A DNA stretch of 64,000 bases, from IMG/VR virus record IMGVR_UViG_3300011116_001227. One strand, written 5' to 3'. The translations under genes were made by a program, and so were the position numbers. The stretch's first letter is position 1, and the number at the start of each line of letters is the position of its first letter. The notes below the pieces were generated by a model that worked only from the letters and a program-made list of their open reading frames with translations, was not told the origin of the DNA and ran no database searches. Below are positions 37,697-51,608 of this stretch, one piece after another. Source of the stretch: a virus (lineage: Duplodnaviria; Caudoviricetes).

Positions 37697-38338
37697 TCAT
37701 TCGTCATAAAAAGACTTAATAATTTTTCTTGGTCCGTCGATCGGTGGATCAAGAGTTCCGTTCTCTCTAAGATCTCTCTTATCAGCGGTTGGATTGCCTT
37801 TAGAATCCAGCTCATTACCTCTTTGCTGTTCGAACTCTGTCTGAACAGCATCAGCATCTGTGTTTGCAATATCTGTAGGACCTTTAAGCGGTGCTTTAAA
37901 CAGACCGTCGCGAGATTTATTACCAATAATCTTGATGCCATTTTTATGTTCAGGTAGACCGAATATATTTTTAGAAACCATTGCTTCGGTCACTTCATAG
38001 AAAATTTCATCGAATGAGAAAAAGTCACCAATATTCACTCGAATTCCCTTGTCGACTAAATCTCTATATTGAATAAATGCTTCAATCATAAACTGCTTGT
38101 CAATACCGAACTTGTCTATCTTGGTTGACTGTTGGAAGTTTGCATCAACAATGCATTCTATTTCTATTGGATTGTCGTAGACTTTCTTCAATGCTTCGTT
38201 ATAAACATCGTGAGTTTTTGTCTTCAACTCTGAAATAGGGTAATAATAGATTTTTTGACCAATCACATCTTTTACTATCTCTTTCGTAATGTCTGAGATA
38301 AAATTTAACTCTCTCTCTGTGATAAACAAACGAGCCAT
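37697..38338 (-). CDS. neck / head completion protein (gp14-like)
   Basis: MARLFITERE...EIVKDVIGQKIYYY...VYNEA, IGDFFSFDEIFYEV; synteny with the neck genes. Confidence 0.65.
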   Translation of the reverse strand: MARLFITERELNFISDITKEIVKDVIGQKIYYYPISELKTKTHDVYNEALKKVYDNPIEIECIVDANFQQSTKIDKFGIDKQFMIEAFIQYRDLVDKGIRVNIGDFFSFDEIFYEVTEAMVSKNIFGLPEHKNGIKIIGNKSRDGLFKAPLKGPTDIANTDADAVQTEFEQQRGNELDSKGNPTADKRDLRENGTLDPPIDGPRKIIKSFYDE

Positions 38339-38350
38339 AAGTTATCTCCT

Positions 38351-39529
38351 TTATCCTATTACGATAGATTTTCCTGATGGCATAGGGATATACCTCAGAC
38401 TCTTGTTAAGATTTTCTGCTGTGAGAGCGTCAGTTTCTATCAGCTTGGCTCTCGTCAAGTTTGATAAAAATTCTTTTAACTGTGTAATTAGTTTGTCCTT
38501 GTCTTCTCTACCCTGCGTAACAAGTGATTCACCATTCAGCTGAAGATCAGCATTTGGAATAGGAATACTCTGAAATTTAGAGCGAATTAGACCTAATAAC
38601 TCTCTGCAAAGCGCAAGAGTATATTGACGAATCCACTGACGTCCAGGTTGTGTGATGCTTCTAAATGGAAGATTTCCATAAGGAATATTCTCTGGTCCTG
38701 AAATACCGTAGATAGAATCGTCTTTAAAGGCTGTAGGATTAAGTGGATCTTTTCTTGGCATTACTTTGCAATAAACTCTTCCCACTTGTGATTCAAGTAC
38801 TGGAATCGGGAATAGACGAAGTTTGCTTCCAATTAATTGATAACTGTATTGTGATCTTCTCACTCTGAATGCAGTTTCTAACATTCCTCTTCTTAAAACA
38901 TCTTCAAATACTGGAAGAACGTAGAACACTGTTGAGTTGATGTACGACTCATAGTTGAAGTTTGTCGCCAAGTAGTTTGTAATATTTGACGCGTTTAAAA
39001 GAAAGTGTTGTGCAGCAATTGGCTCAAAGTGAAACAATTCTACAATTTTTAACTTTCCTTTAGATCCGCTTGGAATAGTGTCGTAAATGTTTAAATTTGT
39101 TTGAGCGTCTTTTAAGTCAGCGTACAAATCGTAGTCTTGTTTGTCGCCTACGACGTCAAAATAGCCTAAAATAGGATTGTAGGAACCTCCTACGTTGGTC
39201 TCAGAAGCATACGCATCTGCCATTCTTGTTAAGAACTCCAACGTATTCCTTGTGTACTTATTTGTCAGATCTGTTGATCCTGTAGGCATTCCTAAAACGT
39301 TTGACAATTCAGACACAATTTTCATTTCATGAATATTTTTGCTATATTCACAGCATGCTTCTTCAAAACATGCCCATATCTCTTTCTTAGTCAATTCAAC
39401 GCTAAGAACATCGTCACCTAACTTTCTTTTTACAAAGTTGACCATGCTGTCAGCTTCAGACTGAAAGTCAGTATCTGAATCAAAAAAACCGAACGGTGTA
39501 GGATTCACAATGTCCGTAAAAGATGCCAT
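38351..39529 (-). CDS. neck / adaptor protein (gp13-like)
   Basis: TPFGFFDSD.DFQ, VKRKLGDDVLSVEL, WIRQYTLALCRELLG.IRSKF..IPIPNA..QLNG. Confidence 0.7.
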   Translation of the reverse strand: MASFTDIVNPTPFGFFDSDTDFQSEADSMVNFVKRKLGDDVLSVELTKKEIWACFEEACCEYSKNIHEMKIVSELSNVLGMPTGSTDLTNKYTRNTLEFLTRMADAYASETNVGGSYNPILGYFDVVGDKQDYDLYADLKDAQTNLNIYDTIPSGSKGKLKIVELFHFEPIAAQHFLLNASNITNYLATNFNYESYINSTVFYVLPVFEDVLRRGMLETAFRVRRSQYSYQLIGSKLRLFPIPVLESQVGRVYCKVMPRKDPLNPTAFKDDSIYGISGPENIPYGNLPFRSITQPGRQWIRQYTLALCRELLGLIRSKFQSIPIPNADLQLNGESLVTQGREDKDKLITQLKEFLSNLTRAKLIETDALTAENLNKSLRYIPMPSGKSIVIG

Positions 39530-39556
39530 CTAAAACTCCGAGTACAATCGTACAGA

Positions 39557-39563
39557 TAAATAT
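39557..39563 (-). promoter_or_regulatory. putative late promoter motif ATANTTA (ATATTTA)
   Basis: exact motif 27 nt upstream of the neck gene start. Confidence 0.5.
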
Positions 39564-39611
39564 CATTAGGAAAAACTAATCATTAACAAACTCAACAAAA
39601 CAGGTGATATT

Positions 39612-40400
39612 GTGAAAATAATAAAATTTGGTTCATCAGGAGAAGACGTTTCTACGTGGCAAATTTTTTTAAGAGGACTAAAAGAAGACAGCCATGTAAT
39701 TGTCAATGGCTTCTTTGACAATCAGACGAACGCAGAAACAAAAGAATTTCAAGCAAAATCAAATCTAAAAAACGACGGAATAGTCGGTCCTTCGACATTG
39801 GCCGTAGCTTTAAATTTAGGTTTTTGCTTGATGTCAGATGATTCAATTGACGAGAATAGTTCTAATTGGCCCGTTCTGCCTTCACCAAATCAATTTTTAA
39901 GCCCGCAAGCAAGAATTAAATTATTTGGAGCTTTTACTTACGAATCTGCACCTGTTTCGTCAAATCCAGAAGCCATAATCATAAAGGGAGATTGGGTTGC
40001 AAAAAATATAAAGAGTGTAGCAATTCCTCAACTCAAAGGATTAGCTGGCGCTCCTGCAAATTTGGCTGTTCAAATAAATGAAAAGATTGCTGATCAGACA
40101 ATCAAACTATTCACAGCTTGGGAATCAGCAAATCTAAAAGATAAAATTAAAACGTGGGGCGGATCTTGGGTACCTAGATTTATTAGAGGATCTAGATCAA
40201 CATTATCAAATCATGCATGGGGAACGGCATTTGATATAAATGCACAATGGAACATGCTTGGATCTACTCCAGCATTAAAGGGACAGCTAGGGTCGACTAG
40301 AGAACTAGTTCAAATAGCTTACGAACACGGTTTCTATTGGGGAGGCTGGTTTCCTGGTCGACCTGATGGAATGCACTTTGAAGCTTACAAAATTCTATAG
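39612..40400 (+). CDS. endolysin: peptidoglycan-binding domain + M15-family peptidase
   Basis: GSSGEDVSTWQIFL...FQ...DGIVGPSTL (PG-binding), then R..RG...SNHAWGTAFDIN and DGMHFE (M15 Zn ligands). Confidence 0.85.
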   Translation: MKIIKFGSSGEDVSTWQIFLRGLKEDSHVIVNGFFDNQTNAETKEFQAKSNLKNDGIVGPSTLAVALNLGFCLMSDDSIDENSSNWPVLPSPNQFLSPQARIKLFGAFTYESAPVSSNPEAIIIKGDWVAKNIKSVAIPQLKGLAGAPANLAVQINEKIADQTIKLFTAWESANLKDKIKTWGGSWVPRFIRGSRSTLSNHAWGTAFDINAQWNMLGSTPALKGQLGSTRELVQIAYEHGFYWGGWFPGRPDGMHFEAYKIL

Positions 40401-40628
40401 TCACATACCAGAAATTAAAGCTTGCACAGCAGTCTTAACTCTTTCTTGCAATTCTTTAGGAAGTGCTGCAAGAAGAACATAATTTTCAACTTTTTGAGAA
40501 GATGCTGGTACACCTCCAGCAACATACTCTTGATTAACTGTAACTACAGTTCTAAGAACTAGAGGAGGAAGGCCTGGTCTGTTTGCGTAAATTGGTTGAT
40601 AAAGATCAGCGTTGTTATTCATGTTCAT
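40401..40628 (-). CDS. hypothetical protein
   Basis: 75-aa ORF, stop abuts the endolysin stop. Confidence 0.55.
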   Translation of the reverse strand: MNMNNNADLYQPIYANRPGLPPLVLRTVVTVNQEYVAGGVPASSQKVENYVLLAALPKELQERVKTAVQALISGM

Positions 40629-40804
40629 CCTTTTAAGATATTGTTAGACTTAGCGAGTGCTTCGTTCATATTGGACATCATCTGTCTAATCTTTAGCAAC
40701 TCTTCTTCTAATTCTTCAACATTCTTGCCTAAAGATCTGTCTTCTTCGATTCTAGCAAGAAGATTCACGTATAATTCATGCAGTTTTTCTGATGATGCGG
40801 GCAT
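40625..40804 (-). CDS. small coiled-coil hypothetical protein
   Basis: start taken at MPASSEK (40804); heptad-like acidic/basic helix; 4-nt overlap with the next gene. Confidence 0.5.
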   Translation of the reverse strand: MPASSEKLHELYVNLLARIEEDRSLGKNVEELEEELLKIRQMMSNMNEALAKSNNILKG

Positions 40805-41081
40805 TTTTTTGTCCTTTCTTGTTAACTTCTTCACTTTCGATTTTGATCTGACTATTATTTTTATTGAGATCGCTAACTCTCTTCTCTTCTTGAAGAATCC
40901 AAGATTCAAACTTTGTTTTGTTAGTTTGATCTTGAACAGTCTGCATATTTTGAAGAATTATTGATCTTAATTCTAACAAAAGATTTTGTTGAGCATCTCT
41001 GCTGTCTGCTTCTACGACTTTCGTCGTAAGAAGAGTTTCATATAGAAAAATTGTCTCAGTAGGGGTTAAAGATAAAAGCAT
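40776..41081 (-). CDS. hypothetical protein
   Basis: start taken at MLLSLTP (41081) with GGAGG SD. Confidence 0.55.
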   Translation of the reverse strand: MLLSLTPTETIFLYETLLTTKVVEADSRDAQQNLLLELRSIILQNMQTVQDQTNKTKFESWILQEEKRVSDLNKNNSQIKIESEEVNKKGQKNARIIRKTA

Positions 41082-41155
41082 TTTTACCTCCAGAAAAATT
41101 AAAAACGGCACACCTTTCGATGCGCCGTCTTATTCTACAATATTTTAATTTAAAA

Positions 41156-41419
41156 TCACCAAGCCTTGTCAGTAAATCTATAATGCTTCTGAAGAGCACG
41201 ATAGATTGTACGGGCTTCACGTCCATCAAAACGGAAAGTATCACCATTTGGTGAATCAACAAAAAGAACAGTTGAATCACTCACAGGATTTGTGCTAACT
41301 GCAACTGTAATTCCTGTATTACGGCGAGTCGTCTCTGTTCGAAGCTTTCCAGTACGATCTTCACGCGAAACAATTGTAGAATTACGATTAGCTGATTGTG
41401 TGTTCTTACGTCGTGTCAT
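41156..41419 (-). CDS. small basic hypothetical protein
   Basis: 87 aa, Arg/Thr-rich, AGAGG SD. Confidence 0.6.
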   Translation of the reverse strand: MTRRKNTQSANRNSTIVSREDRTGKLRTETTRRNTGITVAVSTNPVSDSTVLFVDSPNGDTFRFDGREARTIYRALQKHYRFTDKAW

Positions 41420-41507
41420 AATTTACCTCTGTAATATTAGAACCAGTGGTTCCTATGCTTCTATAATAAGACAGAGGTATGTCTATGTTCAAAACTTGAT
41501 CTTGTAA

Positions 41508-41816
41508 TTATTTTTCTTCAATCTTAGACATCAGTATACCAACCTTCTTAGAAGCATCTGGGTCTGCTGCAAGCAAAGCTTTTACAAATGCTAAAAGAGC
41601 TGCTCCCTTGCTAGCATCGCCCTTTTTGGCAGCGAGAACTGCAACTTTTAATGTCTGTTCATCCATGCCTAATTGATTAGCGATCTCTTTTGTATTGAGC
41701 TGTCCCTTTGTGTCTGTTTTTTCGCCTTTTGCAGAAGCTGCTGAGTCTTCTCCTCCTTCTCGAAGAATCTCTTGACGAATAATTTTACGTAATTGTAGTT
41801 CTGTTAATTTTATCAT
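41508..41816 (-). CDS. small protein with MIKLTxxQLRKIIxxE leader
   Basis: MIKLTELQLRKIIRQEILRE; ATACTTA motif at 41832-41838. Confidence 0.65.
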   Translation of the reverse strand: MIKLTELQLRKIIRQEILREGGEDSAASAKGEKTDTKGQLNTKEIANQLGMDEQTLKVAVLAAKKGDASKGAALLAFVKALLAADPDASKKVGILMSKIEEK

Positions 41817-41954
41817 TTTTTTTACTTTATTTAAGTATCCAAGAAATTTATTCGGGTCCCAGAGTTTAAATATAAAAAATTACTAAATTATTGGCTGTTG
41901 CCAACAAAAACAAAAGGCGATATTTTCTAATGCCCTGCTTATTAAACAAAGCAG

Positions 41955-43556
41955 TTATTTCGAATTAATTAATCCTGATATAATATTGGGTGAATTACCA
42001 AATTCTGCAGTCTTATTTCCGTCACCTCTAGCAACAGCATAAACTGCTGCAGTTGAAGCAAAAGAAGAAACCTGTTCAGATGTCTTTGACACGTCATCTG
42101 CACCAGTGACCGGATTGAATCCAACAGCATTCTTTCCTCCAACCTTGTTGGCATAAACATGTCCAAACCAACCGTTCTTGATGTTTGCTTTAGGATCCAT
42201 AACATAGAGCCAATTGCAACCGTCGGGAGTTGCGTCAGGCCACGCATTTCCTTGAAGTGGTGTATGAGGAGTATCGCCATATGCGACAAACGTCGTGTTT
42301 TGATCTAGCTTTTCTGTCACACTCTCAGGATCAGTCTGCTGTGACAGATAGTTGTAGAAGCCATTCAGGACCTTCCCTAGGTGTTTTGTGGTATTTCTGC
42401 CTTGGTTCATTAAGGTAGAATTATCAAATGTAACGTGGGGGTCTGTGAAGGTCGTGTCGGAGGTCGGTCCTGGGGATAATGCTACTATCGCAGTCTTCGA
42501 TAACCCAAGAGTAAATGCCTTAGCAACTACGATAAGAACTCTACCAAATTCTTCTATTTGATTTTTTTGAGAAGGCGTCATATAAGAAGAAGATGAAGCT
42601 GCACCGTCGAGCATCTCTTGAATTCCAAAATCAGATAAGTCTTGGCTTGTTGGAGTCAACTGCGAAGCAAAGTTAAGTCCAATGATTCGTGCTGCATTCT
42701 TTGTGACAGACATCTGAGGTAACCATGTAGATCGGCTAGAAGACTTTCTTAGTCCGACAAGTGCTTTATAATAGACCTCAAATAACTCCTGATCGTTTTT
42801 GCTGATTAGAGCAAATTGACTTGCTGCAGAATTAAAAAGATCGATCATTCCTGCAGAGCTTGGAACAGTTGCTACTTCAGGAGCACCTGGCGCTCTTCCA
42901 TACTTGACGGGATCTATTCCAAGGACAGGTACAATCGCGCCTGAACCTGCTGATCCGAGAGATGCAAGTGCTGCCACCATAGTAGAATTACCAGACAATG
43001 ATGTAGAAGAAGTTGGAAATTCTGTGTGTGTCTCATCCTTTCCAGACATGAAGGCAGAGACAGGATACTTTGGGGTTCCTGTAGAATGATCGAACCAAGG
43101 AGCATCAGGACCATAGAAGAAAGGTCTGTCACCGCCTGACCAACTCTTTACGCCAGCTGGAAGAGACGGAATGACATTTCCCTTACCTGATGTGTACGTT
43201 CCACGGTATCCGCTTCCCGGATTGTATCCGTACTGAGACGTATAGAGGTAAGAAGAAAATCCACCGAACTGCGATGTTAATCCAGGAACGTTGGCATTTT
43301 GACATGCCTTGAGACCAACATCAGCGACGGGCCACAGTTCTTGAAACCACGCCTGTGATCCATTTGGAGCTGGTACTATTAATGAACGACCAAATGTAGA
43401 TCCGGCAGCTTCAGCAAGTCCCGATCCACCCTCGTCTGATAAAAAGTTTAAAAGTTTACTTCTCTCAATTCCCACAGCAGCAGCAACAACTGTGCACATT
43501 TTTAGAAATGTTCTGCGTTGTTCTCCTCGAAGATCTTTTAATTTCCAGTTAGACAT
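41955..43556 (-). CDS. Tat-exported protein, DUF1501/DUF1552-like
   Basis: twin-arginine signal QRRTFLKM + hydrophobic stretch + AEAA cleavage-like site; C-terminal DPH...LDQNTTFVAYGDTPHTP resembles the DUF1501 LDDTLVV..SEFGRTP region. Confidence 0.6.
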   Translation of the reverse strand: MSNWKLKDLRGEQRRTFLKMCTVVAAAVGIERSKLLNFLSDEGGSGLAEAAGSTFGRSLIVPAPNGSQAWFQELWPVADVGLKACQNANVPGLTSQFGGFSSYLYTSQYGYNPGSGYRGTYTSGKGNVIPSLPAGVKSWSGGDRPFFYGPDAPWFDHSTGTPKYPVSAFMSGKDETHTEFPTSSTSLSGNSTMVAALASLGSAGSGAIVPVLGIDPVKYGRAPGAPEVATVPSSAGMIDLFNSAASQFALISKNDQELFEVYYKALVGLRKSSSRSTWLPQMSVTKNAARIIGLNFASQLTPTSQDLSDFGIQEMLDGAASSSSYMTPSQKNQIEEFGRVLIVVAKAFTLGLSKTAIVALSPGPTSDTTFTDPHVTFDNSTLMNQGRNTTKHLGKVLNGFYNYLSQQTDPESVTEKLDQNTTFVAYGDTPHTPLQGNAWPDATPDGCNWLYVMDPKANIKNGWFGHVYANKVGGKNAVGFNPVTGADDVSKTSEQVSSFASTAAVYAVARGDGNKTAEFGNSPNIISGLINSK

Positions 43557-43569
43557 TTTTTACCTCGAT

Positions 43570-44583
43570 TCACTGACAAGAATGTGCTGCACTGAGAAGA
43601 GCAGCTACTGCGATAATCCTCTTTTTATTTAAATCGCTTAGATCATTTGGATTTGCTTTCTGAATAATTAAATTGCACAGAAGCATGTGATCATCCGTAG
43701 CTGCTTGTCCAATTAAGCAACTCACATTTTCTTCTACACAACTACCATCTGACACGTTAAACATTGGCTTGTTCTTTCCATTTAAAGTGCATGCAGGCGC
43801 TTTTGAAGGATCAGAAATATTTGTAATAATTTGAGGTGCAGCTTGAATAAAAATATCCATAATTTTCATTGCAGATGCAGTAGTATGTTCATCCTTTTCG
43901 CCTAGACGAGAATCAAGCTTAGGCACACCTAACGCATTCTTACCTGTATAATAAAGGTAACCAGGCGTTGAAATTTTAGTTACACAGTAACCATCTTTTG
44001 CGTCAGGAGAGTTGTTTCCGACGTCAAGACAAGTACGATTAATTTCGTTCTGCTTGTCATCCTGATTGCAGAAGCACGCTTCTCCGTTTGGACACAATGG
44101 ATCATTACCTTGTCCGGATCCGTTTGCGGTGGTGTCAGCCATTTCACAAGCTGAATTACCTCCGCCAAAAACGTTACCTAACGACTGAGAAGCACCAAAA
44201 ATTGTTACTTGCGTAGTTTTTAAATCAGAAACACTGCCTTGAGGAATTGAGGCTCCACGTGAACGCAACAAATTACCAAGCTGCGTATATGATAATTTAT
44301 GGCAGCTATGCAGTCTAGAAATAATTTCATCTGCAGCAGGAGGCTGATAAGATGGAACTACACTCATACCACCAGAACCATCTTGTGAAGATCCGCTCGA
44401 TGAAGAACTAGATGATGTTGAAACTAAAGAATTTGTTCCACCTGAGCCTGCCATAGAAGATGAAGATACAGATGACACTGCTTCCTGTTCAGGGCAATCG
44501 TATTCTTCAATATCTGGTGGAGTAGATCCACAAGCTAAAATTAATACAAACAGTGTTGCAAATCCAAATAGATTCTTGTTCAT
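43570..44583 (-). CDS. cysteine-rich lipoprotein
   Basis: MNKNLFGFATLFVLILAC signal/lipobox (start 44583, 1 nt after the upstream stop), Ser/Gly linker, many Cys. Confidence 0.7.
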   Translation of the reverse strand: MNKNLFGFATLFVLILACGSTPPDIEEYDCPEQEAVSSVSSSSMAGSGGTNSLVSTSSSSSSSGSSQDGSGGMSVVPSYQPPAADEIISRLHSCHKLSYTQLGNLLRSRGASIPQGSVSDLKTTQVTIFGASQSLGNVFGGGNSACEMADTTANGSGQGNDPLCPNGEACFCNQDDKQNEINRTCLDVGNNSPDAKDGYCVTKISTPGYLYYTGKNALGVPKLDSRLGEKDEHTTASAMKIMDIFIQAAPQIITNISDPSKAPACTLNGKNKPMFNVSDGSCVEENVSCLIGQAATDDHMLLCNLIIQKANPNDLSDLNKKRIIAVAALLSAAHSCQ

Positions 44584-44584
44584 T

Positions 44585-46063
44585 TTAAAACCTCGTGAAA
44601 TCATCTGAGACTAGAATTTCTCTAAACACTTTCTTTAAGTTATAGTTGTTAGACTTAAACATAACGACAAACTTCGACATTGTCATTAATTCTGGATTTG
44701 GATCATTTCGATCAGGCATACTAACCCAGTTTCTTCCACCGACTTCTGTGATATCTGATCTACCCATCGCATAATTCCACATCCTCTTGACGGCGCACTC
44801 AAGGACTTCATCATCCTTTGACATCTGCTGTCCTAACTCTGACAGACTAGATGCAGGTGCAGGTGTTTCTACGCCATTAACTTTCATAACCTTCTTCCAC
44901 GCAGTTCCATTCTGACCTCCATTAGGACACTTTGAAGGATCAATGCAAAGCCAGTCTGATAACTTTGCACGTGGTGATCCAGGAACAGGAACGAATACTG
45001 AATATTCTCCTGCACCTGTCAGCATCTGATAGACGCCTTTTGAATCGAATTGTGAAAATAGCGGTGCTCTATGATTCCACGTCGCATGACAGTTTGCACA
45101 CACGTTGGCAACGTTATAGGCATGAAAGTCAATTCTACCTCCGTTACATGCACCGGCAATTTCATCGACGGACCATTTATTTTGGTACCCAGGAATCGGA
45201 GTTCCACCGCTACAGGGAGGATTTTGTGGAGGAACATCAGTCGGCTCTCCTCCTGCCTGCTCATTTCCATTTCGACAAAGAAAAGTCTCGTGGAAGAATC
45301 GATTTCGCCTGAACGAAAGATTTCCAAAGAAGATACTTTGAACGCCTGGATCAGTTAAAATTCCTGACGACTTCATCCCGACTCCCATGTTGTTACAATT
45401 ACCGTCAGAGAACACGTGAGTCGTCTGATTGTATGTGGGACACGCGTTGGCATCTTGAGTCAGCAACAATCTCCAATCTTTTTCTTCATAGAAGATTCTT
45501 GCAGCTAATGTGGGGGCAGTCTCACGAGTCGGTTCACCCGGTGTAGTGGAGGGACCGGACATCTTGAAGGTGTAGCGATAAAAGTCCAACATGGTATCAG
45601 CAAAACGAGGATCTGCGAGCTTCTTATCAATGAGCTCTTCATACTTTGCCTTCTGTAGGTCTTTTGGCAAATCGCTCAGCTGATAGATTTCAGAAACTGT
45701 AGGTACGTCTCCAACAATCAGAAAACTCGCTGTTCTTAAGGCTTCTGAATAATCGACTTCTCTCTCGTCCAACTCTGTCTTTTCTAATTGAGGTTGATTT
45801 CCTGATCCTGTAGAAACAGTAGATGAGACTTCTGCAACAGTTGCAACAATTTCATTTCCTGAAGTTGTTGTAGAAGATTTTTCACTTGGAACTACAACTT
45901 CACCAGATCCTGTCGATGGAGTAGGACAGTACTTGTAAATCGATGCTGAAGTGTCACCTGAGGCTTTATTCGGATTAGGACGTTCACACCCGTAGAATAA
46001 GAACGCCATAGAAACAATAACAAAAAAACTACGTTTTAAGAATTTGTTCTTTTCTTCTGACAT
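44585..46063 (-). CDS. lipoprotein with CxxCH motif, DUF1549/DUF1588/DUF1585-like
   Basis: lipobox FYGC; EALRTASFLIVGDVPT...YEELIDKKLADPRF (DUF1549-like); CANCH; ELGQQM...ECAVKRMWNYAMGR...YNLKKVFREILVSDDF (DUF1553/1585-like). Confidence 0.65.
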   Translation of the reverse strand: MSEEKNKFLKRSFFVIVSMAFLFYGCERPNPNKASGDTSASIYKYCPTPSTGSGEVVVPSEKSSTTTSGNEIVATVAEVSSTVSTGSGNQPQLEKTELDEREVDYSEALRTASFLIVGDVPTVSEIYQLSDLPKDLQKAKYEELIDKKLADPRFADTMLDFYRYTFKMSGPSTTPGEPTRETAPTLAARIFYEEKDWRLLLTQDANACPTYNQTTHVFSDGNCNNMGVGMKSSGILTDPGVQSIFFGNLSFRRNRFFHETFLCRNGNEQAGGEPTDVPPQNPPCSGGTPIPGYQNKWSVDEIAGACNGGRIDFHAYNVANVCANCHATWNHRAPLFSQFDSKGVYQMLTGAGEYSVFVPVPGSPRAKLSDWLCIDPSKCPNGGQNGTAWKKVMKVNGVETPAPASSLSELGQQMSKDDEVLECAVKRMWNYAMGRSDITEVGGRNWVSMPDRNDPNPELMTMSKFVVMFKSNNYNLKKVFREILVSDDFTRF

Positions 46064-46075
46064 ATAGACTCATTA

Positions 46076-46082
46076 TAACTAT
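46076..46082 (-). promoter_or_regulatory. putative promoter of the lipoprotein/Tat cassette (ATAGTTA overlapping TATAAT)
   Basis: minus strand reads TTTATAGTTATAATGAGTCTATATG up to the 46063 start. Confidence 0.4.
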
Positions 46083-46140
46083 AAATTGAATGGTAAGATA
46101 AACTTTTAAAAAAATACAACATGTAATTAAGCAATTATTT

Positions 46141-46494
46141 TTAAGAATTTTTTAAAGTCAAATGAGATAAACGATGATGCTTCTTTCTAAGAACAAGAGG
46201 ATTGTCTTTGACGAGCCAGAATTCTTTCTCTAGCGGAGGTTCTTCTCCTGCTTTAAACCACATCAACTTTCTTCCGCAAGACGAAGAATATACGCCAATT
46301 ATCGTTATCTCTCCAGCATGAATTAGATCATGACACGTGTGACACACTATAGCCAAATTGTGATTGTCGTTGGAGCATCGAGGATCGCACCGCGGAATGA
46401 TGTGGTGAAAGTTCAACGCCGCAGACCGATCAAACCCACAGACCTCGCACTGTTTTTTGACGAGTTTAGGTTGATTTCTGCTGCGACGCTTCAC
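46141..46494 (-). CDS. small HNH endonuclease
   Basis: CEVCG...LNFHHIIP...NLAIVCHTCHDLIH. Confidence 0.8.
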   Translation of the reverse strand: MKRRSRNQPKLVKKQCEVCGFDRSAALNFHHIIPRCDPRCSNDNHNLAIVCHTCHDLIHAGEITIIGVYSSSCGRKLMWFKAGEEPPLEKEFWLVKDNPLVLRKKHHRLSHLTLKNS

Positions 46495-46581
46495 TCGCTT
46501 TATTATACAATTCAGCGAAAATCTTAAATGAAATCAACGATACAATTATGACAACTCGTTCGCAGAAGGATATATAAAGAC

Positions 46582-47286
46582 ATGTTGTACGACAAGATTG
46601 TTCGTCGGCTGCTGAAAGAATCAAAGCTCGATTCATTCGCTCGTCAAATTAACAGAATGACGATGGACGGCATAAAAAACGTTATTTCTTCTAAATCGAC
46701 AAAAAGAAAAAATAAATTTCGATTTAAAAACGAAGCAACCGACAAAGATGGCACATCTATAGAGGTTGTCACTGACGTATTATTTCGCGAGAACAACAAT
46801 CGAGTGTCCGTAAGTGCCGGCTGGGACTGGCAAAATAGAGTAATGGACGTTCTCGTAAAAATTCCCGATGGAGTCGACAACTATAAAAATCTGCAAGAAA
46901 TTCAATCGAAGCTCTACGAAGCTATTAGACACGAGCTGGAACATTCCACACAAAGTGACGAAGAGGTTGATTCAGCAGAAGAAGCATATCACGACTTCGA
47001 ACAAGACAAATACGACATTGACGCGATTAAGAACTACTACTCTAACGAATCAGAAATACCTGCATTCGTTGCTGGTATTTATCACGCAGCAAAGCGTCTT
47101 CGAAAACCATTCTACCAATTAATGGAAGACAGGTTGGAAAAAATAAAGAAAAATATGAGCAAAAGAGCTGATGATATAGAACCCAGCTACATCAATTCAT
47201 CCGTAGAAGAAATAAGAACTGCGTGGAAAAATTACGCAAGTTTAAGATTTCCGAAAGCAGTCTTAAACAATACCTCAAATGATTAA
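46582..47286 (+). CDS. putative zinc metallopeptidase (HExxH)
   Basis: IRHELEHSTQ followed by YYSNESEIPAF (candidate third ligand Glu). Confidence 0.55.
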   Translation: MLYDKIVRRLLKESKLDSFARQINRMTMDGIKNVISSKSTKRKNKFRFKNEATDKDGTSIEVVTDVLFRENNNRVSVSAGWDWQNRVMDVLVKIPDGVDNYKNLQEIQSKLYEAIRHELEHSTQSDEEVDSAEEAYHDFEQDKYDIDAIKNYYSNESEIPAFVAGIYHAAKRLRKPFYQLMEDRLEKIKKNMSKRADDIEPSYINSSVEEIRTAWKNYASLRFPKAVLNNTSND

Positions 47287-47318
47287 TTAATTGTCTGGCG
47301 TAGCATGCATTAAGAGTT

Positions 47319-47396
47319 AAGCGACGCGGACGTTCGTATCCGCAGATTTCACAATGGTCTTTTACACAATTTTTCTTTTCAACGTCTGCGTCGCTT
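47319..47396. repeat. 16-bp inverted repeat with 46-nt spacer
   Basis: AAGCGACGCGGACGTT (47319-47334) and AACGTCTGCGTCGCTT (47381-47396); one mismatch that is a G-U pair on the plus strand. Confidence 0.8.
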
Positions 47397-47435
47397 CACA
47401 AGAAAGATTATAAGCAAATTATCGTGTTGTTAAAT

Positions 47436-47460
47436 TAAAAAACCGCAGCAGAGCCGCGGT
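47436..47460 (-). terminator. intrinsic terminator
   Basis: minus-strand stem ACCGCGGC-TCT-GCTGCGGT followed by a T-run, just after the 47486 stop. Confidence 0.75.
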
Positions 47461-47485
47461 CTCTTAAAACACAAAGTGATTGTTC

Positions 47486-47935
47486 TCAGGTTCCGCTGAA
47501 TGTCATCGTTCCTGAAACTGCTGTCTGCAAGAAAGACTTGCCGTCGCAGATATAAGCTGCTGCATTGCCAAGAATCGCTTGAAATGTAGATTTGCTGCCG
47601 TGACCAGCATTGTTTCCTGTTCCCGCAGATCCAGCAAACACTAGAGTTCCAGGATCTTCTTGAGAGCCTGTAAGGACGTGTGCCGTTGCAGAAGCATTTC
47701 TAAAAACGAAAAGAGATCCTGGCACTGTCGCTGCAAGAGGCATTGTAACAGTAACAGCAGATGCGCCGCTGATTGTGTACACGCCGCCAGCAACGAGTGT
47801 TGTGTTTGATGTAATAGGCGTAATTGTAACGACTGGTGTTGATGCAAATGTAATTGCAGAATCAATCTGCACGCCTGTCTGACCGCCAATCTGATTGAAA
47901 CCTGATGTGTCGTCAATCTTAACTTTAATACTCAT
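47486..47935 (-). CDS. putative virion structural / decoration protein
   Basis: 149 aa, Thr/Ser/Gly/Ala-rich, beta-strand-like; AAGGAG SD and ATATTTA motif at 47983-47989. Confidence 0.5.
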   Translation of the reverse strand: MSIKVKIDDTSGFNQIGGQTGVQIDSAITFASTPVVTITPITSNTTLVAGGVYTISGASAVTVTMPLAATVPGSLFVFRNASATAHVLTGSQEDPGTLVFAGSAGTGNNAGHGSKSTFQAILGNAAAYICDGKSFLQTAVSGTMTFSGT

Positions 47936-48029
47936 TGTGATTTTTCTCCTTGAATTTCCCCCACACTAAAATTGGGACACACTAAATATAGACTAGTCGA
48001 TTATTTAAAATAATTGTTCTATAGTCGAA

Positions 48030-48473
48030 TTATTTAGACATCATATAAGACTTGAATGCATCACTTCCAATAGCGTGATGCTTTCCTTCAATCTGATAAT
48101 AAAGATTCACACCGACGTTTAACGACCATTGCACCATCCAATTGAGAGTCTTAACGTCAAGTTTTCCCCCTGCTTCTGCAACCTCATAATGCGTGAGATC
48201 AGGTTGAGAAGGTAAAATAATTTTTGAAATTATGACTCCTGTTAAGTCAGGTCTCATCCACTCTGGAAAAGTTTCCTGCTCGGCGAGCCACGCGCAATTA
48301 TACGTTTTGCATACATCTGGACGACCTACATAATCAGTACATTTTCCTTTCGAGAGAAAGAAACAAGGACAACCTGGATACATGCTGTGACCTTTAATAT
48401 TAGCTGACAACCATCCTTCACAACACTTTGTGCATTCTCCACAAGTTCTATTTGCAATTTTTAATTGTTTCAT
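48030..48473 (-). CDS. YkgJ-like cysteine-cluster (Zn/Fe-chelating) protein
   Basis: CGECTKCC...CPCFFL..GKC..Y..RP.VCKTYNCAW; start taken at MKQLKIA (48473). Confidence 0.7.
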   Translation of the reverse strand: MKQLKIANRTCGECTKCCEGWLSANIKGHSMYPGCPCFFLSKGKCTDYVGRPDVCKTYNCAWLAEQETFPEWMRPDLTGVIISKIILPSQPDLTHYEVAEAGGKLDVKTLNWMVQWSLNVGVNLYYQIEGKHHAIGSDAFKSYMMSK

Positions 48474-48756
48474 CTGATTCCCAGTTTGATTTACCCACTG
48501 GATAACACTTGTAACATCTGCTGCCTCTTTCAAATGCTTGAAGAGTCTTTGGTTGAACTTCTCCACACTTCACGCATTCAAATTTGAGATACTGCTGTTG
48601 TCTTGATCTGTATTCTTCTAGATTTGTAATTAATTTAAACTCTTTTGATCTCTCTAATATTCTTTCTTCTATTGTTAAAGTTACCAACATTTTATTTTCA
48701 GATATTTTTTTAAGAGTCTCCTGGGTGTGGTGTCGACCATAAAAATGGTTTCCGGG
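48448..48756 (-). pseudogene. internal fragment of a NUMOD3 / Hef-like homing endonuclease
   Basis: frame upstream of the 48690 ATG is open and reads PGNHFYGRHHTQETLKKISENK (NUMOD3-like); downstream CVKC...RCYKCYP parallels CNRC...RCFQCAP of the 28380 protein; no nuclease core. Confidence 0.65.
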
Positions 48757-48757
48757 A

Positions 48758-48790
48758 ATACATTAACTGAATGTTTATAAACTACAAAGG
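48758..48790 (+). repeat. 33-bp direct repeat, copy 1
   Basis: ATACATTAACTGAATGTTTATAAACTACAAAGG; 32/33 identical to 49642-49674. Confidence 0.92.
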
Positions 48791-48800
48791 ACATGTTGAT

Positions 48801-49628
48801 TCAAGACAGCTCTGCATCCTCCGGGGCGAGCATCACCACGAACCACCAATTGCGCTTCTCACAGAAAGCCTTCGCGGCGTCCCACTTGGCCTGGTCCACG
48901 GCGTCGTGGCGACCCTTCACCTCGTACAGGGTGCGGTCGTCAAATCCGTAGAAATCAGGAATGTAAGTCCGAGTGGTGCCGTCGGGGTGGGTATAGGGAA
49001 TCTGGATGCCGTGGTTCTTGGTGACGTGGTACTGGCGAGACACGCAGGCCTGGTAGAACGCTGACTCCCAAGACGAGTGCATGTGCTCCTCCTCGCCGGT
49101 CCACGGGCTGATCAGGGTCTCACGCTTGAAGGGAGCGTGCGGTCCGATCTTGTTGTCAGCCAAGAGCTGCACGGCACGAGCGGAGGCTTCTTGCCGGAGG
49201 ACGGGTGCGAGGGGCGACTCAGCCCAGAAGCGACGAATAGACTCTGTCTGTTTCTTTATTGCCTCAGGAGTTTTTGAAAGAGGATTCATCTTTTTTATTC
49301 TCTTTTTTGCTACATCTGGGTGTTTTGACATGAATTCTTTCATGTTTACAGAGTTCTTCCTCCCGATCTTCGCCTTCTCTTCTTCAGATTTGATTCTGCC
49401 ATGTGCGTGATGTCCGTGAATAAATCGGGTAAAATCCTTTAAGGCAATATTCCACTTATTTTTGGAACCACATCCACAAGCACAGTGTGGAGCTTGTCCA
49501 CCGTATTTCCACTTGAGCACGTATTCTTGCGCGTTGATCTTGTGACATCGAATGTGTCTTAAGACGAACTCTAATGAATCGAATTCAGTATTACACTCTT
49601 TACAGACATTGTCAATTTCAGTTAACAT
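48801..49628 (-). CDS. putative homing endonuclease: C2H2 + CxCGCG module + TnsA-like PD-(D/E)xK domain
   Basis: CKEC...HIRCH, CACGCG...HGH, NUMOD3-like KSEEEKAKIG, SSWESAF, IPYTHPDGTTRTYIPDF...LYEVKG...KWDAAKAFC. Confidence 0.78.
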   Translation of the reverse strand: MLTEIDNVCKECNTEFDSLEFVLRHIRCHKINAQEYVLKWKYGGQAPHCACGCGSKNKWNIALKDFTRFIHGHHAHGRIKSEEEKAKIGRKNSVNMKEFMSKHPDVAKKRIKKMNPLSKTPEAIKKQTESIRRFWAESPLAPVLRQEASARAVQLLADNKIGPHAPFKRETLISPWTGEEEHMHSSWESAFYQACVSRQYHVTKNHGIQIPYTHPDGTTRTYIPDFYGFDDRTLYEVKGRHDAVDQAKWDAAKAFCEKRNWWFVVMLAPEDAELS

Positions 49629-49730: not shown

Positions 49731-51608
49731 TCATATCACGTTCATGTCCAAGCATGTGACAGTCCCGAAGAAATCACTTCGGACCATCTTCTTGCCGTAG
49801 CGAGTCATCACGCCTTTTCTTGGCGTAAAGTCCTCAGGAGCGAAGATGGTGGGTGTCACAATGAGTGGAACGTATGGAGCGTAGACGTAGCCGGTCTCGA
49901 GGTAGGAGCCGCCCTTGTAGCCGACGAGGATCTTGTTACGTGGGAAGTAAGGATCCTTGTAGACTGTGAAGCGGTTAGAAACTGAGCCGATTGCCTCTGC
50001 ACCGATTGTGAATGGAGAAGCGACCTGTCCCTCGCCATCGATAGAAAGCTTTGGCTTGTAGAGGACAGAGCTCTCGAGGATCGTTGCAACATCTGGGCCG
50101 CAGACCATGAAGTTTGCAGAGCCACGGAGTGTCTTGCGGTGAATGGTGTTCGCAACGTCGATGACTGTCTCAACGAGTGTCTCGTACCACTCACGAACTG
50201 TACCGGTGAAGGCTGGTCCGATCTGGAGGCCATCAGCGAGGGCAGAGCGTGCTCCTGTAACCTTGTTAACGAAGCGACCAGGTGAACGTGACCAGTAGTA
50301 GTTAGCGCCGTTTGCCTGTGTGACGAGGTCGTTGAGGATCTCGCGGTCGATCTCGAGAGCAATTTGCTCAGAGAGGATCGAGGTGAGCTCAACCTCTGCG
50401 TCCATCGAGTGATAGGCGTTGAGGTCTTGCGCGAGTTCAGGTGACCAACGTGCGCGGAGCTTGCGGGTCTCAGCTGTCACAGCGATAGACTCGATACGGA
50501 TGTCGATCTCTGGGATAACTGGAGATGGGTTTGATCCGAAGTCAGATTCGAAAGAAGGCACTGTAACTGTGCTGCCAGCTGTGCTGTCAACTGAGAGTGC
50601 AGATGAAACAGCGTATGTTACGTGAGCTGTGGCTGTACCTTGAAGCTGAGATGTGTTTGTTGCTGCAACAAGTGCGAGAAGGTGTGCACCGCCGAGTGGG
50701 TTTGGTGTCCAAACCTTAGAGGTGTTGTTCCAGTCACCGCGCTTGTTGAGGCGACGAAGGTTCTTGATGCCTGTGCCACCTTGGAAAGCCTCGCCCCATG
50801 CGAGTGCGTTGGTGAGACCGCTGTGAACAGCGACCTGATCGATTGCAAGTGCGTCGACGTTTGATCCGAGATCGGAGAGCTTGACAACGACGAATGCAGC
50901 ATCGAGTGTTCCTAGTGCAAGAGCATTCTCGACCTGTGGGTCGAAATCTGCGTAGCGAGCGTTAGATCCGCTGAACATGGAATCAGATGTGATCATTGCA
51001 CCCTCAACCCATGTACCAGCAGCGTTCCAAGAACCTGAAGCGTTTCCTGTTGCTGATGCGTCGTAGGTGAGATCGAGTGTAGAAACTGATCCTGTCACGC
51101 GGCTGTAACCTGCACCAACGAGGTCGTACATACCACCAGCTGCAAGAGATCCAGATTGGACGCCCTTACCACGTGGGTTGTTGTAGATAGATTGACCTGC
51201 GGTGTATGTTGATGTAGAATCTCCGCTGATTTGACCAACGTTTGTTCCGTAGGTGTAATCAAGGTAGAAGATTAGACCTGATGGGAGGCTCATTGGTTGG
51301 ATGGAGACGAGCTCGTTGGCAACGAGGCCACCGAACACGCGGCGGACGATTGGGAATGCGATGTTGCTGAAGCCCTGGATCTGACCGGAAGAAGCAATGT
51401 TTCCGCCGCCAGAAGAAAGAGCTGAGCTCTCCTTGAGGACCTGTGCTGCTTGGTTCTCGAGAAGCTGTGACATCATCTCGCGGCGTTGACCGTCGAGTCC
51501 ACGGAGGAGGCCTGTGCGGCTCCACTTCTCTGTTAAACGGGCGCGCTCTGCACCAACGTGCTTGTCGCGAATGCCCTGTGCTAATTGATCTAAGCTAAAA
51601 TACTTCAT
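49731..51608 (-). CDS. gp23: major capsid protein
   Basis: KWSRTGLL.GL, MSQLLENQA, AFPIVRRVFGGL.ANELVSIQPMSLPSGLIFYL, TRKLRARWSPELAQDLNAYH.MDAE.EL, GYVYAPYVPL, PRKGVMTRYG. Confidence 0.96.
   Translation of the reverse strand: MKYFSLDQLAQGIRDKHVGAERARLTEKWSRTGLLRGLDGQRREMMSQLLENQAAQVLKESSALSSGGGNIASSGQIQGFSNIAFPIVRRVFGGLVANELVSIQPMSLPSGLIFYLDYTYGTNVGQISGDSTSTYTAGQSIYNNPRGKGVQSGSLAAGGMYDLVGAGYSRVTGSVSTLDLTYDASATGNASGSWNAAGTWVEGAMITSDSMFSGSNARYADFDPQVENALALGTLDAAFVVVKLSDLGSNVDALAIDQVAVHSGLTNALAWGEAFQGGTGIKNLRRLNKRGDWNNTSKVWTPNPLGGAHLLALVAATNTSQLQGTATAHVTYAVSSALSVDSTAGSTVTVPSFESDFGSNPSPVIPEIDIRIESIAVTAETRKLRARWSPELAQDLNAYHSMDAEVELTSILSEQIALEIDREILNDLVTQANGANYYWSRSPGRFVNKVTGARSALADGLQIGPAFTGTVREWYETLVETVIDVANTIHRKTLRGSANFMVCGPDVATILESSVLYKPKLSIDGEGQVASPFTIGAEAIGSVSNRFTVYKDPYFPRNKILVGYKGGSYLETGYVYAPYVPLIVTPTIFAPEDFTPRKGVMTRYGKKMVRSDFFGTVTCLDMNVI

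Follow-up and report, generated by a model that had tools for sequence, protein, structure and literature searches.

Modules that combine PSCyt/PSD proteins with a DUF1501-type protein are abundant in Planctomycetota, Verrucomicrobiota and Myxococcota and have been unexplained since 2004-2012. We compared these modules with a cassette of three genes for exported proteins (A, B and C), which is carried by a virus of the class Caudoviricetes on a DNA stretch of 64,000 nucleotides (nt) from the IMG/VR record IMGVR_UViG_3300011116_001227. This whole stretch is called the window. In bacteria of the Planctomycetes-Verrucomicrobia-Chlamydiae (PVC) group, the DUF1501 and PSCyt/PSD modules are regarded as membrane-targeted and possibly electron-transferring, with a function that is unknown (Kamneva et al. 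2012, PMC3542564; He et al. 2017, PMC5615132). An earlier prediction made from the window sequence (the original prediction) had related the cassette to such gene sets without assigned function, and the comparison with the modules of these two studies agreed with it. We class the cassette as a variant PSCyt/DUF1501-type envelope module that is carried as a phage auxiliary operon.

The origin and evolutionary behaviour of the cassette are firmly established, and it is highly probable that it is a host-derived, functional, exported module. It is possible, although less likely than not, that A-B-C is a previously undefined periplasmic enzyme machine, which would consist of a heme lipoprotein, a Cys-rich partner lipoprotein and a Tat-exported (twin-arginine translocation) metalloenzyme of a new branch of the alkaline-phosphatase superfamily. 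On this reading, freshwater jumbo phages that infect planktonic, uncultured Polyangia would have captured it at least twice, since phage production would be limited by its reaction. All three open reading frames (ORFs) were present on the minus strand as coupled genes with export signals, as claimed in the original prediction; lengths are in amino acids (aa).

44585..46063, minus strand: gene A, a predicted 492-aa lipoprotein with a Ser/Thr/Gly-rich tether (residues ~27-95), then a helical domain with one CxxCH motif and a PSCyt2/PSD2-like ("planctomycete cytochrome") fold
45986..45988, minus strand: Cys26 codon of A (lipobox, FYGC), invariant in 33/33 homologues and always right after the hydrophobic stretch
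45086..45100, minus strand: CANCH codons of A (residues 322-326), a c-type heme attachment motif
43570..44583, minus strand: gene B, a predicted 337-aa lipoprotein (ILAC, Cys18) with a Ser-rich tether, a Cys-rich globular domain and the end ...AAHSCQ
41955..43556, minus strand: gene C, 533 aa, with a QRRTFLK twin-arginine signal and a predicted alkaline-phosphatase-superfamily fold like DUF1501
43512..43517, minus strand: R14-R15 codons of C (twin arginines), kept in 90/91 family members

The A stop codon (TAA) was separated from the B ATG by 1 nt, and the B stop codon (TGA) from the C ATG by 13 nt. Gaps of 1 and 26 nt had been predicted, so that the first value held and the second was corrected. 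A GAGG Shine-Dalgarno-like box was located ahead of both B and C.

Comparison with described systems

The DUF1501 + PSCyt1/PSCyt2/PSD1 modules of Planctomycetota, Verrucomicrobiota and Lentisphaerota resemble the cassette in that a Tat protein with a DUF1501-type fold stands beside an exported CxxCH protein with a DUF1549-like region. The likeness in fold reached TM-scores of 0.49-0.55 between A and DUF1549/DUF1553 clusters and of 0.52-0.62 between C and DUF1501 clusters. Unlike in these modules, C of the triad is unrecognised by PF07394 and belongs to a separate small sequence family. Furthermore, A of the triad is short, probably lipid-anchored, devoid of PSCyt1 and PSD1 and below the Pfam cut-offs, the third gene B is always present, and the hosts are Polyangia, with phages as additional carriers.

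The second related group comprises pairs of DUF1552 (HXXSHH) with DUF1585/1587/1588/1592/1595 (PSD2-5, PSCyt3). A shares with them a weak PSD2/DUF1585 match and fold matches to DUF1592 and DUF1585 proteins, and C has weaker fold matches to DUF1552. However, C shows no PF07586 sequence match and is nearer to DUF1501 in fold, and A lacks the other PSD domains.

Cyanophage pstS and phoA are phage auxiliary metabolic genes for exported proteins. The triad and these genes are alike in host origin, in purifying selection, in being carried by large T4-like phages and in products that act outside the cytoplasm. In contrast to pstS and phoA, the triad is a complete three-gene operon that was captured twice from paralogous host loci, and it would need three host routes, namely lipoprotein sorting, heme c attachment and Tat. 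We know of no described phage auxiliary system that would depend at once on heme c maturation, on the sorting of lipoproteins and on Tat export. T5 Llp and Cor are phage lipoproteins that block receptors, and like A and B they are lipobox proteins aimed at the envelope of the infected cell. These proteins are single and small and have no host operon homologues, whereas the triad products are large, enzyme-like and conserved together with their host versions. The cassette lies in a bona fide phage genome, has a cellular origin and is kept by selection, as is the case for phage auxiliary genes.

Phage context of the cassette

In this T4-like phage, the cassette is located between the genes for the gp23 capsid protein and the gp13 neck protein, which is the insertion site that had been predicted.

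49731-51608: gp23 capsid gene
38351-39529: gp13-like neck gene

Phage hallmark genes were present on both sides of the cassette (gp23, gp13, gp15, sheath, portal, TerL, ribonucleotide reductase, helicase, RecA-like protein and endolysin). The guanine-cytosine content (GC) of the cassette was 0.425 compared to 0.424 for the window. The order gp23 ... A-B-C ... endolysin, gp13, gp15 was also found in independent assemblies from ENA and JGI (L005, L006, L007 and L089), and one 16,052-bp contig from a lake-water run of another study covered positions 38000-48790 at ~99.5% identity, spanning gp13, the cassette and an HNH gene. This stretch was found in 18 DNA runs, and the 20 runs with any part of it came from 11 studies and included runs labelled viral metagenome. 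The predicted contiguity with phage genes was thus borne out by independent contigs that span both junctions. The carrier is a large freshwater T4-like phage with gene content of lytic type, and the original prediction of a lytic-type phage with an intact captured envelope module was supported.

Misassembly and host contamination were considered and were ruled out by the phage-like GC and by the independent contigs across both junctions.

In CheckV, the 187-211 kb records of four relatives (L116, L117, L121 and L142) were 52-65% complete, which corresponds to genomes of roughly 330 kb and thus to jumbo phages. The gp23 protein of the window has 625 aa (621-630 aa in relatives), and its best Pfam Gp23 stretch begins near residue 340. 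The gp23 gene also had a much higher GC at third codon positions (GC3, 0.55) and a lower synonymous divergence (dS) than the neighbouring genes.

Origin of the operon in Polyangia

A, B and C all had abundant homologues. A scan of one genome per prokaryotic species yielded 80 loci, all of them in the class Polyangia (Polyangiaceae, Byssovorax, Polyangium, Chondromyces, Minicystis, Labilithrix and Kofleriaceae). The order A-B-C was shared by nearly all of these bacterial loci, whose GC was 0.57-0.74. The closest copies were from freshwater Polyangiaceae metagenome-assembled genomes, with C 75-77% identical and a plain chromosomal setting that included glmS, clpB, mrp and a GH35 gene. One locus (L001) was clearly chromosomal, with glmS, clpB and mrp nearby. 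The triad was the only widely conserved unit at the bacterial loci, and the sole recurring neighbour was an extra A paralogue.

In the C tree, all type-1 copies in phage context formed one clade together with 31 copies of unknown context (Shimodaira-Hasegawa-like approximate likelihood ratio test, SH-aLRT, 100). This phage clade (support 99-100) was nested inside the freshwater Polyangiaceae group, and the A tree agreed. The trees show that the three-gene operon was, in all probability, acquired from Polyangia (Myxococcota) by a clade of large freshwater T4-like phages. The phylogenies proposed in the original prediction thus placed phage type 1 among freshwater Polyangiaceae and showed two phage types. 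The predicted hint at a host lineage also held, and it led to the class Polyangia of Myxococcota and not to Planctomycetota.

At many bacterial loci, an A paralogue upstream gave the order A'-A-B-C (e.g., L003:6247-7572 and L021:2630-3832). Both phage types had A-B-C only.

Retention in phages and a second capture

GC3 was 0.22-0.41 in phage copies compared to 0.80-0.88 in the nearest bacterial operon. Between phage copies, synonymous sites were saturated, the nonsynonymous divergence (dN) was 0.12-0.29 and dN/dS was 0.05-0.16 where computable. C was 81-84% identical among phages, a divergence similar to that of gp13 and gp23, and the GC of the cassette tracked the GC of each carrier phage. 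Together, the phage-like GC3, saturated dS, low dN/dS, gp13/gp23-like divergence and GC tracking argue for an old acquisition that was inherited and kept functional. These substitution patterns show that phages keep the cassette as an accessory gene set, evidently under purifying selection.

A second type of A-B-C was found at the same locus in three related IMG/VR phage loci (L139, L140 and L142, the last at L142:6066-9371). The L142 gp23 was 76% identical to the window gp23, and type-2 A, B and C were 31%, 40% and 35% identical to those of the window. Type 2 keeps the lipoboxes, the CANCH, RR, DPH and GDTP motifs and a phage-like GC3. Its nearest relatives, at 57-67% identity, belong to a different bacterial paralog clade. 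The 91-row C tree had two deep clades, with phage type 1 nested in one and type 2 in the other. Forcing a single all-phage clade cost 424 log-likelihood units (approximately unbiased, AU, test, p = 3.8e-98); the all-phage group for this test was named only after the tree was seen. By this topology, the cassette is judged to have been captured at least twice, independently. The twin arginines, both lipobox cysteines, CxxCH, H177, D372, H374, D428 and D441 were retained in phage copies of both types.

One further type-1 cassette (L088:5472-9602) lay in a phage-like contig of 32% GC, with flanking genes (GT2, HNH, CYTH and Cpn10) that match nothing in the window. The cassette has therefore moved between phage backgrounds or positions.

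It is extremely improbable that the cassette is a neutral hitch-hiker with homing endonucleases, or misassembled host DNA. Variable HNH and TnsA-like genes flank the site and mark an insertion hotspot, as this explanation would expect. However, GC and GC3 are phage-like, both junctions are spanned by independent contigs, and dN/dS does not exceed 0.16, with dS saturated, among phage copies whose divergence is close to that of gp13 and gp23. In addition, the same triad was captured twice independently, and its signals and motifs are intact in all copies.

The cassette was present at the same gp23-gp13 locus in ~37 IMG/VR contigs, where it is unannotated, and an ESM Atlas cluster labelled viral also holds a cassette protein, again unannotated. 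No copy of A or C was found in 50,697 GenBank phage records, and a tblastn search of a canonical DUF1501 protein against GenBank phages gave two partial weak matches only. No paper that links these families to phages or describes a phage version was found in the literature searched. A DUF1501 mention in a Pseudomonas phage paper was a weak match on a 61-aa ORF. The original claim that no phage version had been described therefore stood for the literature and for the GenBank phage records, and the implied uniqueness did not, given the IMG/VR contigs.

Protein A

The lipoprotein and Tat signals of A, B and C were judged from sequence and conservation. The predicted FYGC and ILAC lipoboxes and the QRRTFLK twin-arginine motif were all present and conserved beyond what chance would give (33/33 for A, at least 90% of 30 for B and 90/91 for C), with atypical residues at lipobox positions -2 and -3 of A and B.

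A begins with a basic and hydrophobic N-terminus that ends in FYGC, followed by a Ser/Thr/Gly-rich stretch and a single CANCH motif at residues 322-326, which had been noted in the original prediction. Cys26, C322, C325, H326, N330, H331 and R332 were invariant in 33 A homologues. A thus presents a heme c attachment motif (CxxCH) in an exported-type protein, and the motif was kept in the type-2 phage copy; heme binding by A is only predicted.

Pfam matches of A fell below the gathering cut-offs. PSCyt2/DUF1549 (PF07583) scored 24.6 bits against a cut-off of 29.8, over residues 100-163 only, and PSD2/DUF1585 (PF07624) scored 23.6 bits against 25.8, over residues 405-436. In precomputed annotation, many close A homologues (e.g., the 84%-identical P0122) carry PF07624 and more distant bacterial ones carry PF07583. 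DUF1553 and DUF1588 had no Pfam match in A. The predicted likeness to DUF1549 and DUF1585 is therefore retained as sub-threshold matches, and that to DUF1553 is withdrawn.

The AlphaFold2 (AF2) model of A had a mean confidence (pLDDT) of 77.8, with residues 1-92 modelled as a disordered tether. In Foldseek searches of AlphaFold DB clusters, it matched DUF1549, DUF1592, DUF1585 and "planctomycete cytochrome C" proteins (E 1e-11 to 1e-5); the values for DUF1549 proteins were E 1.9e-10 to 2.5e-7 and TM 0.45-0.48. In the Atlas, TM-scores were 0.49-0.76 overall and 0.49/0.55 for a PSCyt2+PSD1 cluster. Foldseek against the PDB gave nothing meaningful for A, that is, no solved structure with its fold. 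Together, signal, motif and model show A as a protein with a predicted lipid anchor, a single motif for c-type heme attachment and a PSCyt/PSD-type fold.

Protein B and the tether cysteines

B carries a signal that ends in ILAC, a Ser-rich stretch and 14 cysteines in total. Its lipobox Cys was kept in at least 90% of 30 homologues, and four core cysteines and an invariant C-terminal ...SC[QE] were also kept. No Pfam domain was found in B or in any B homologue, and the nearest Atlas clusters were Myxococcota lipoproteins without Pfam domains. Searches of NCBIfam and PHROGs found no family for A, B or C. The homologue set shows B as a second, probably disulfide-rich lipoprotein that occurs only beside A and C.

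A second tether Cys ([DN]-C-P) lies 10-21 residues past the lipobox Cys in both lipoproteins, as Cys46 in A (45926-45928) and Cys30 in B (44494-44496). It was present in both A and B at 31 loci and in neither at 36, with one discordant locus. These cysteines may form an intermolecular A-B disulfide.

The cysteines of B also bear on a Sox-like carrier cycle, which is a highly unlikely explanation drawn by analogy. In such a cycle, A would oxidatively load a small inorganic or organic group on a B cysteine and the sulfatase-like C would hydrolyse it off, which would keep periplasmic sulfur/phosphorus oxidation and assimilation running. The Sox system follows a similar three-part logic, with SoxAX as heme protein, SoxYZ as carrier through a Cys close to its C-terminus and SoxB as hydrolase exported by Tat, and the invariant ...SC[QE] end and the odd Cys number (13) of mature type-1 B would suit a carrier. 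However, none of the searches related the triad to Sox proteins in sequence or in fold. The number of Cys is even in type-2 B, so that its terminal Cys may just be disulfide-bonded.

Protein C

QRRTFLK at residues 13-19 of C is followed by the hydrophobic stretch MCTVVAAAVGI, which fits a Tat motif with its hydrophobic region. TIGR01409 scored 16.0 bits against a cut-off of 16.7, and PF10518 matched 21/38 members of the C family at E up to 1. C itself had no Pfam match. PF07394 (DUF1501) recognised neither C nor 38 relatives, also when E values up to 1 were admitted, and PF07586 (DUF1552) gave no sequence match. When three Polyangia genomes were searched with PF07394, nothing was found at the C locus of Minicystis rosea, the one genome with coordinates compared. 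When C was aligned with seven canonical DUF1501 proteins in hhalign, the probability was 10.7% and E was 0.0029. The C family is small and discrete, with 329 clusters among 1.84 billion representatives, and 0/10 tested carried DUF1501.

The AF2 model of C (pLDDT 83.5) was compared exhaustively to the PDB with VIA-align. All of the top 50 rows belonged to the alkaline-phosphatase superfamily (Z 8.1-11.6, 228-270 aligned residues), and the matching rows included sulfatases, NPPs, PafA, iPGM and MCR-1. Foldseek against the PDB gave just weak rows of this superfamily with E above 0.1, and when profiles of A and C were run against the sequences in the PDB, only chance matches came up. Against AlphaFold DB clusters, C matched DUF1501 (E 3.9e-5 to 3e-4), DUF1552 and DUF1800. 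The range of TM-scores for DUF1501 clusters given above came from the Atlas and included one cluster with 0.56/0.62 over 373 residues. The fold match to DUF1552 was weaker than that to DUF1501, with E 8.5e-5 and TM 0.27 in AlphaFold DB and TM 0.46/0.51 in the Atlas. Across 91 C sequences, H177, D372-P373-H374, G427-D428 and D441 were invariant and the twin arginines nearly so.

The model comparisons thus show C as a Tat-signal protein with a predicted alkaline-phosphatase-superfamily fold closest to DUF1501. Its likeness to DUF1501/DUF1552 is one of fold only, and C is a separate sequence family. The original prediction that C resembles DUF1501/1552 was right for the predicted fold and wrong for the sequence, given the lack of Pfam matches.

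A search of BFVD yielded no viral structure with E below 0.001. Its best weak row, A0A6J5M742, is recorded as a canonical "DUF1501 domain-containing protein" from an uncultured Caudovirales phage, so that related modules may exist in other phages.

The structural neighbours of C include the envelope phosphotransferases MCR-1, EptA, EptC, LtaS, BcsG and GacH (Z 8.5-10), and these lend themselves to an explanation by surface remodelling or superinfection exclusion, which is considered unlikely. The exported products would alter or mask a receptor, exopolysaccharide or lipid head group, so that infected cells resist adsorption or progeny escape trapping on debris. Two of the three products (A and B) are predicted lipoproteins, T5 Llp and Cor-type lipoproteins act in this manner, and an accessory cassette of two types is as expected of arms-race traits. 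However, Polyangia carry the operon on their chromosomes, widely and in multiple copies, which means that defence against phages is not its native role, and the phage copies hold every conserved host-enzyme residue instead of diverging. The neighbouring envelope transferases are membrane-embedded Sec proteins, whereas C appears to be a soluble Tat substrate.

Proposed function of the cassette

The reading as an auxiliary copy of a host enzyme system is slightly favoured. All signals and candidate catalytic residues were kept in both captures, which makes it most likely that the phage copy carries out the reaction of the host and not a new one. In infected cells, A, B and C would be exported and matured by the Sec/Lol, Ccm and Tat machineries of the host and would assemble into a membrane-tethered periplasmic enzyme complex, the same as the host's own. 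Complex formation is suggested by the strict co-occurrence of the three genes, by their joint transfer on two occasions and by the cysteines in the tethers. The phage-made complex would supplement or replace the host copies once host gene expression fails.

A specific ester-processing chemistry is possible but doubtful. C would cleave or transfer a group of the phospho- or sulfo-ester type with the help of a metal, and A would contribute a coupled step that depends on heme. The ester chemistry is suggested by the fold and the Asp/His set of C, and a coupled redox step by the heme motif of A. The reaction on an envelope or external substrate would sustain supply or envelope function and thereby raise the phage yield.

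Short, near-identical contigs inside C and A were found in two RNA-library runs, which is a weak hint of expression.

Several observations weigh against the reading as an auxiliary copy of a host enzyme system with this chemistry. No relative has a known biochemical function (PMC3542564, PMC5615132), which means that the reaction has been guessed on the basis of fold and motifs. The pairing of a hydrolase-like enzyme with a heme protein is unexplained. T176 and T178 beside H177 are not invariant (AVHH in Polyangium), which makes a canonical Thr nucleophile doubtful, and H431 of C is Lys in type 2. The tether-Cys pattern tracks one deep tree split and thus amounts to one event. Gene origin is the only basis of the host assignment, and the phage GC of 0.42 is far below that of Polyangia (0.63-0.74). 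Related large phage records (212 kb and 278 kb) had no C-family gene, with one match in each control record, which shows that the cassette is accessory and dispensable. The RNA-library contigs for C and A may derive from DNA in those libraries.

The triad is a compact three-gene version of the PSCyt/PSD + DUF1501-type module. Its move into phages as a whole set twice, together with purifying selection, is strong natural evidence of one unit that confers a benefit. Cultivable carriers for genetics are Minicystis rosea, Polyangium, Chondromyces and Labilithrix. If the cassette is indeed a periplasmic machine that limits phage production, it would open an experimental way into the PSCyt/DUF1501 modules. 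The cassette also adds an exported system of several components, with heme and Tat enzyme parts, to the known kinds of phage auxiliary genes. Furthermore, it links an uncultured freshwater T4-like phage clade, with genomes of apparently ~330 kb, to planktonic Polyangiaceae, for which we know of no isolated phages.

Regulatory elements and neighbouring genes

Candidate regulatory elements and two endonuclease genes were located around the cassette.

46064..46161, minus strand: AT-rich region 5' of A, with candidate promoter elements by motif match
41935..41954, minus strand: 6-bp hairpin and T-rich stretch directly 3' of the C stop, a weak terminator candidate by consensus match only
46141..46494, minus strand: gene for a free-standing HNH endonuclease, immediately upstream of the cassette and variably present among relatives
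48801-49628: TnsA-like endonuclease gene, between gp23 and the cassette

A sigma-70-like site (TTGACT-16 nt-AATAAT, by motif match) was found at 46161..46134, where it overlaps the HNH gene at its 3' end. A TATAAT box lies at 46077..46072, which is 8 nt ahead of the A start ATG. A T-run followed by a TATAAT-/TATTAT-like box 6-8 nt before the A start recurred in divergent phage copies (L006, L111, L116, L117, L118 and L125). T4-type late promoters (TATAAATA) were sought upstream of the window genes, and none was found. The same T-run and TATAAT-/TATTAT-like box was also present upstream of 46494 (HNH) and 49628 (TnsA-like gene). This arrangement suggests that the A, HNH and TnsA-like genes may each have their own promoter, with a leader that is very short or absent.

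The HNH and TnsA-like genes were present, absent or swapped among relatives (L103, L111, L120, L126 and others), with TnsA 38-98% identical, which marks a turnover hotspot. Directly downstream of C lies a variable small-ORF zone. Over window positions 41457-41857, an independent lake contig had 260 different nt in place of 296 nt of the window, and an insertion of 120 nt.

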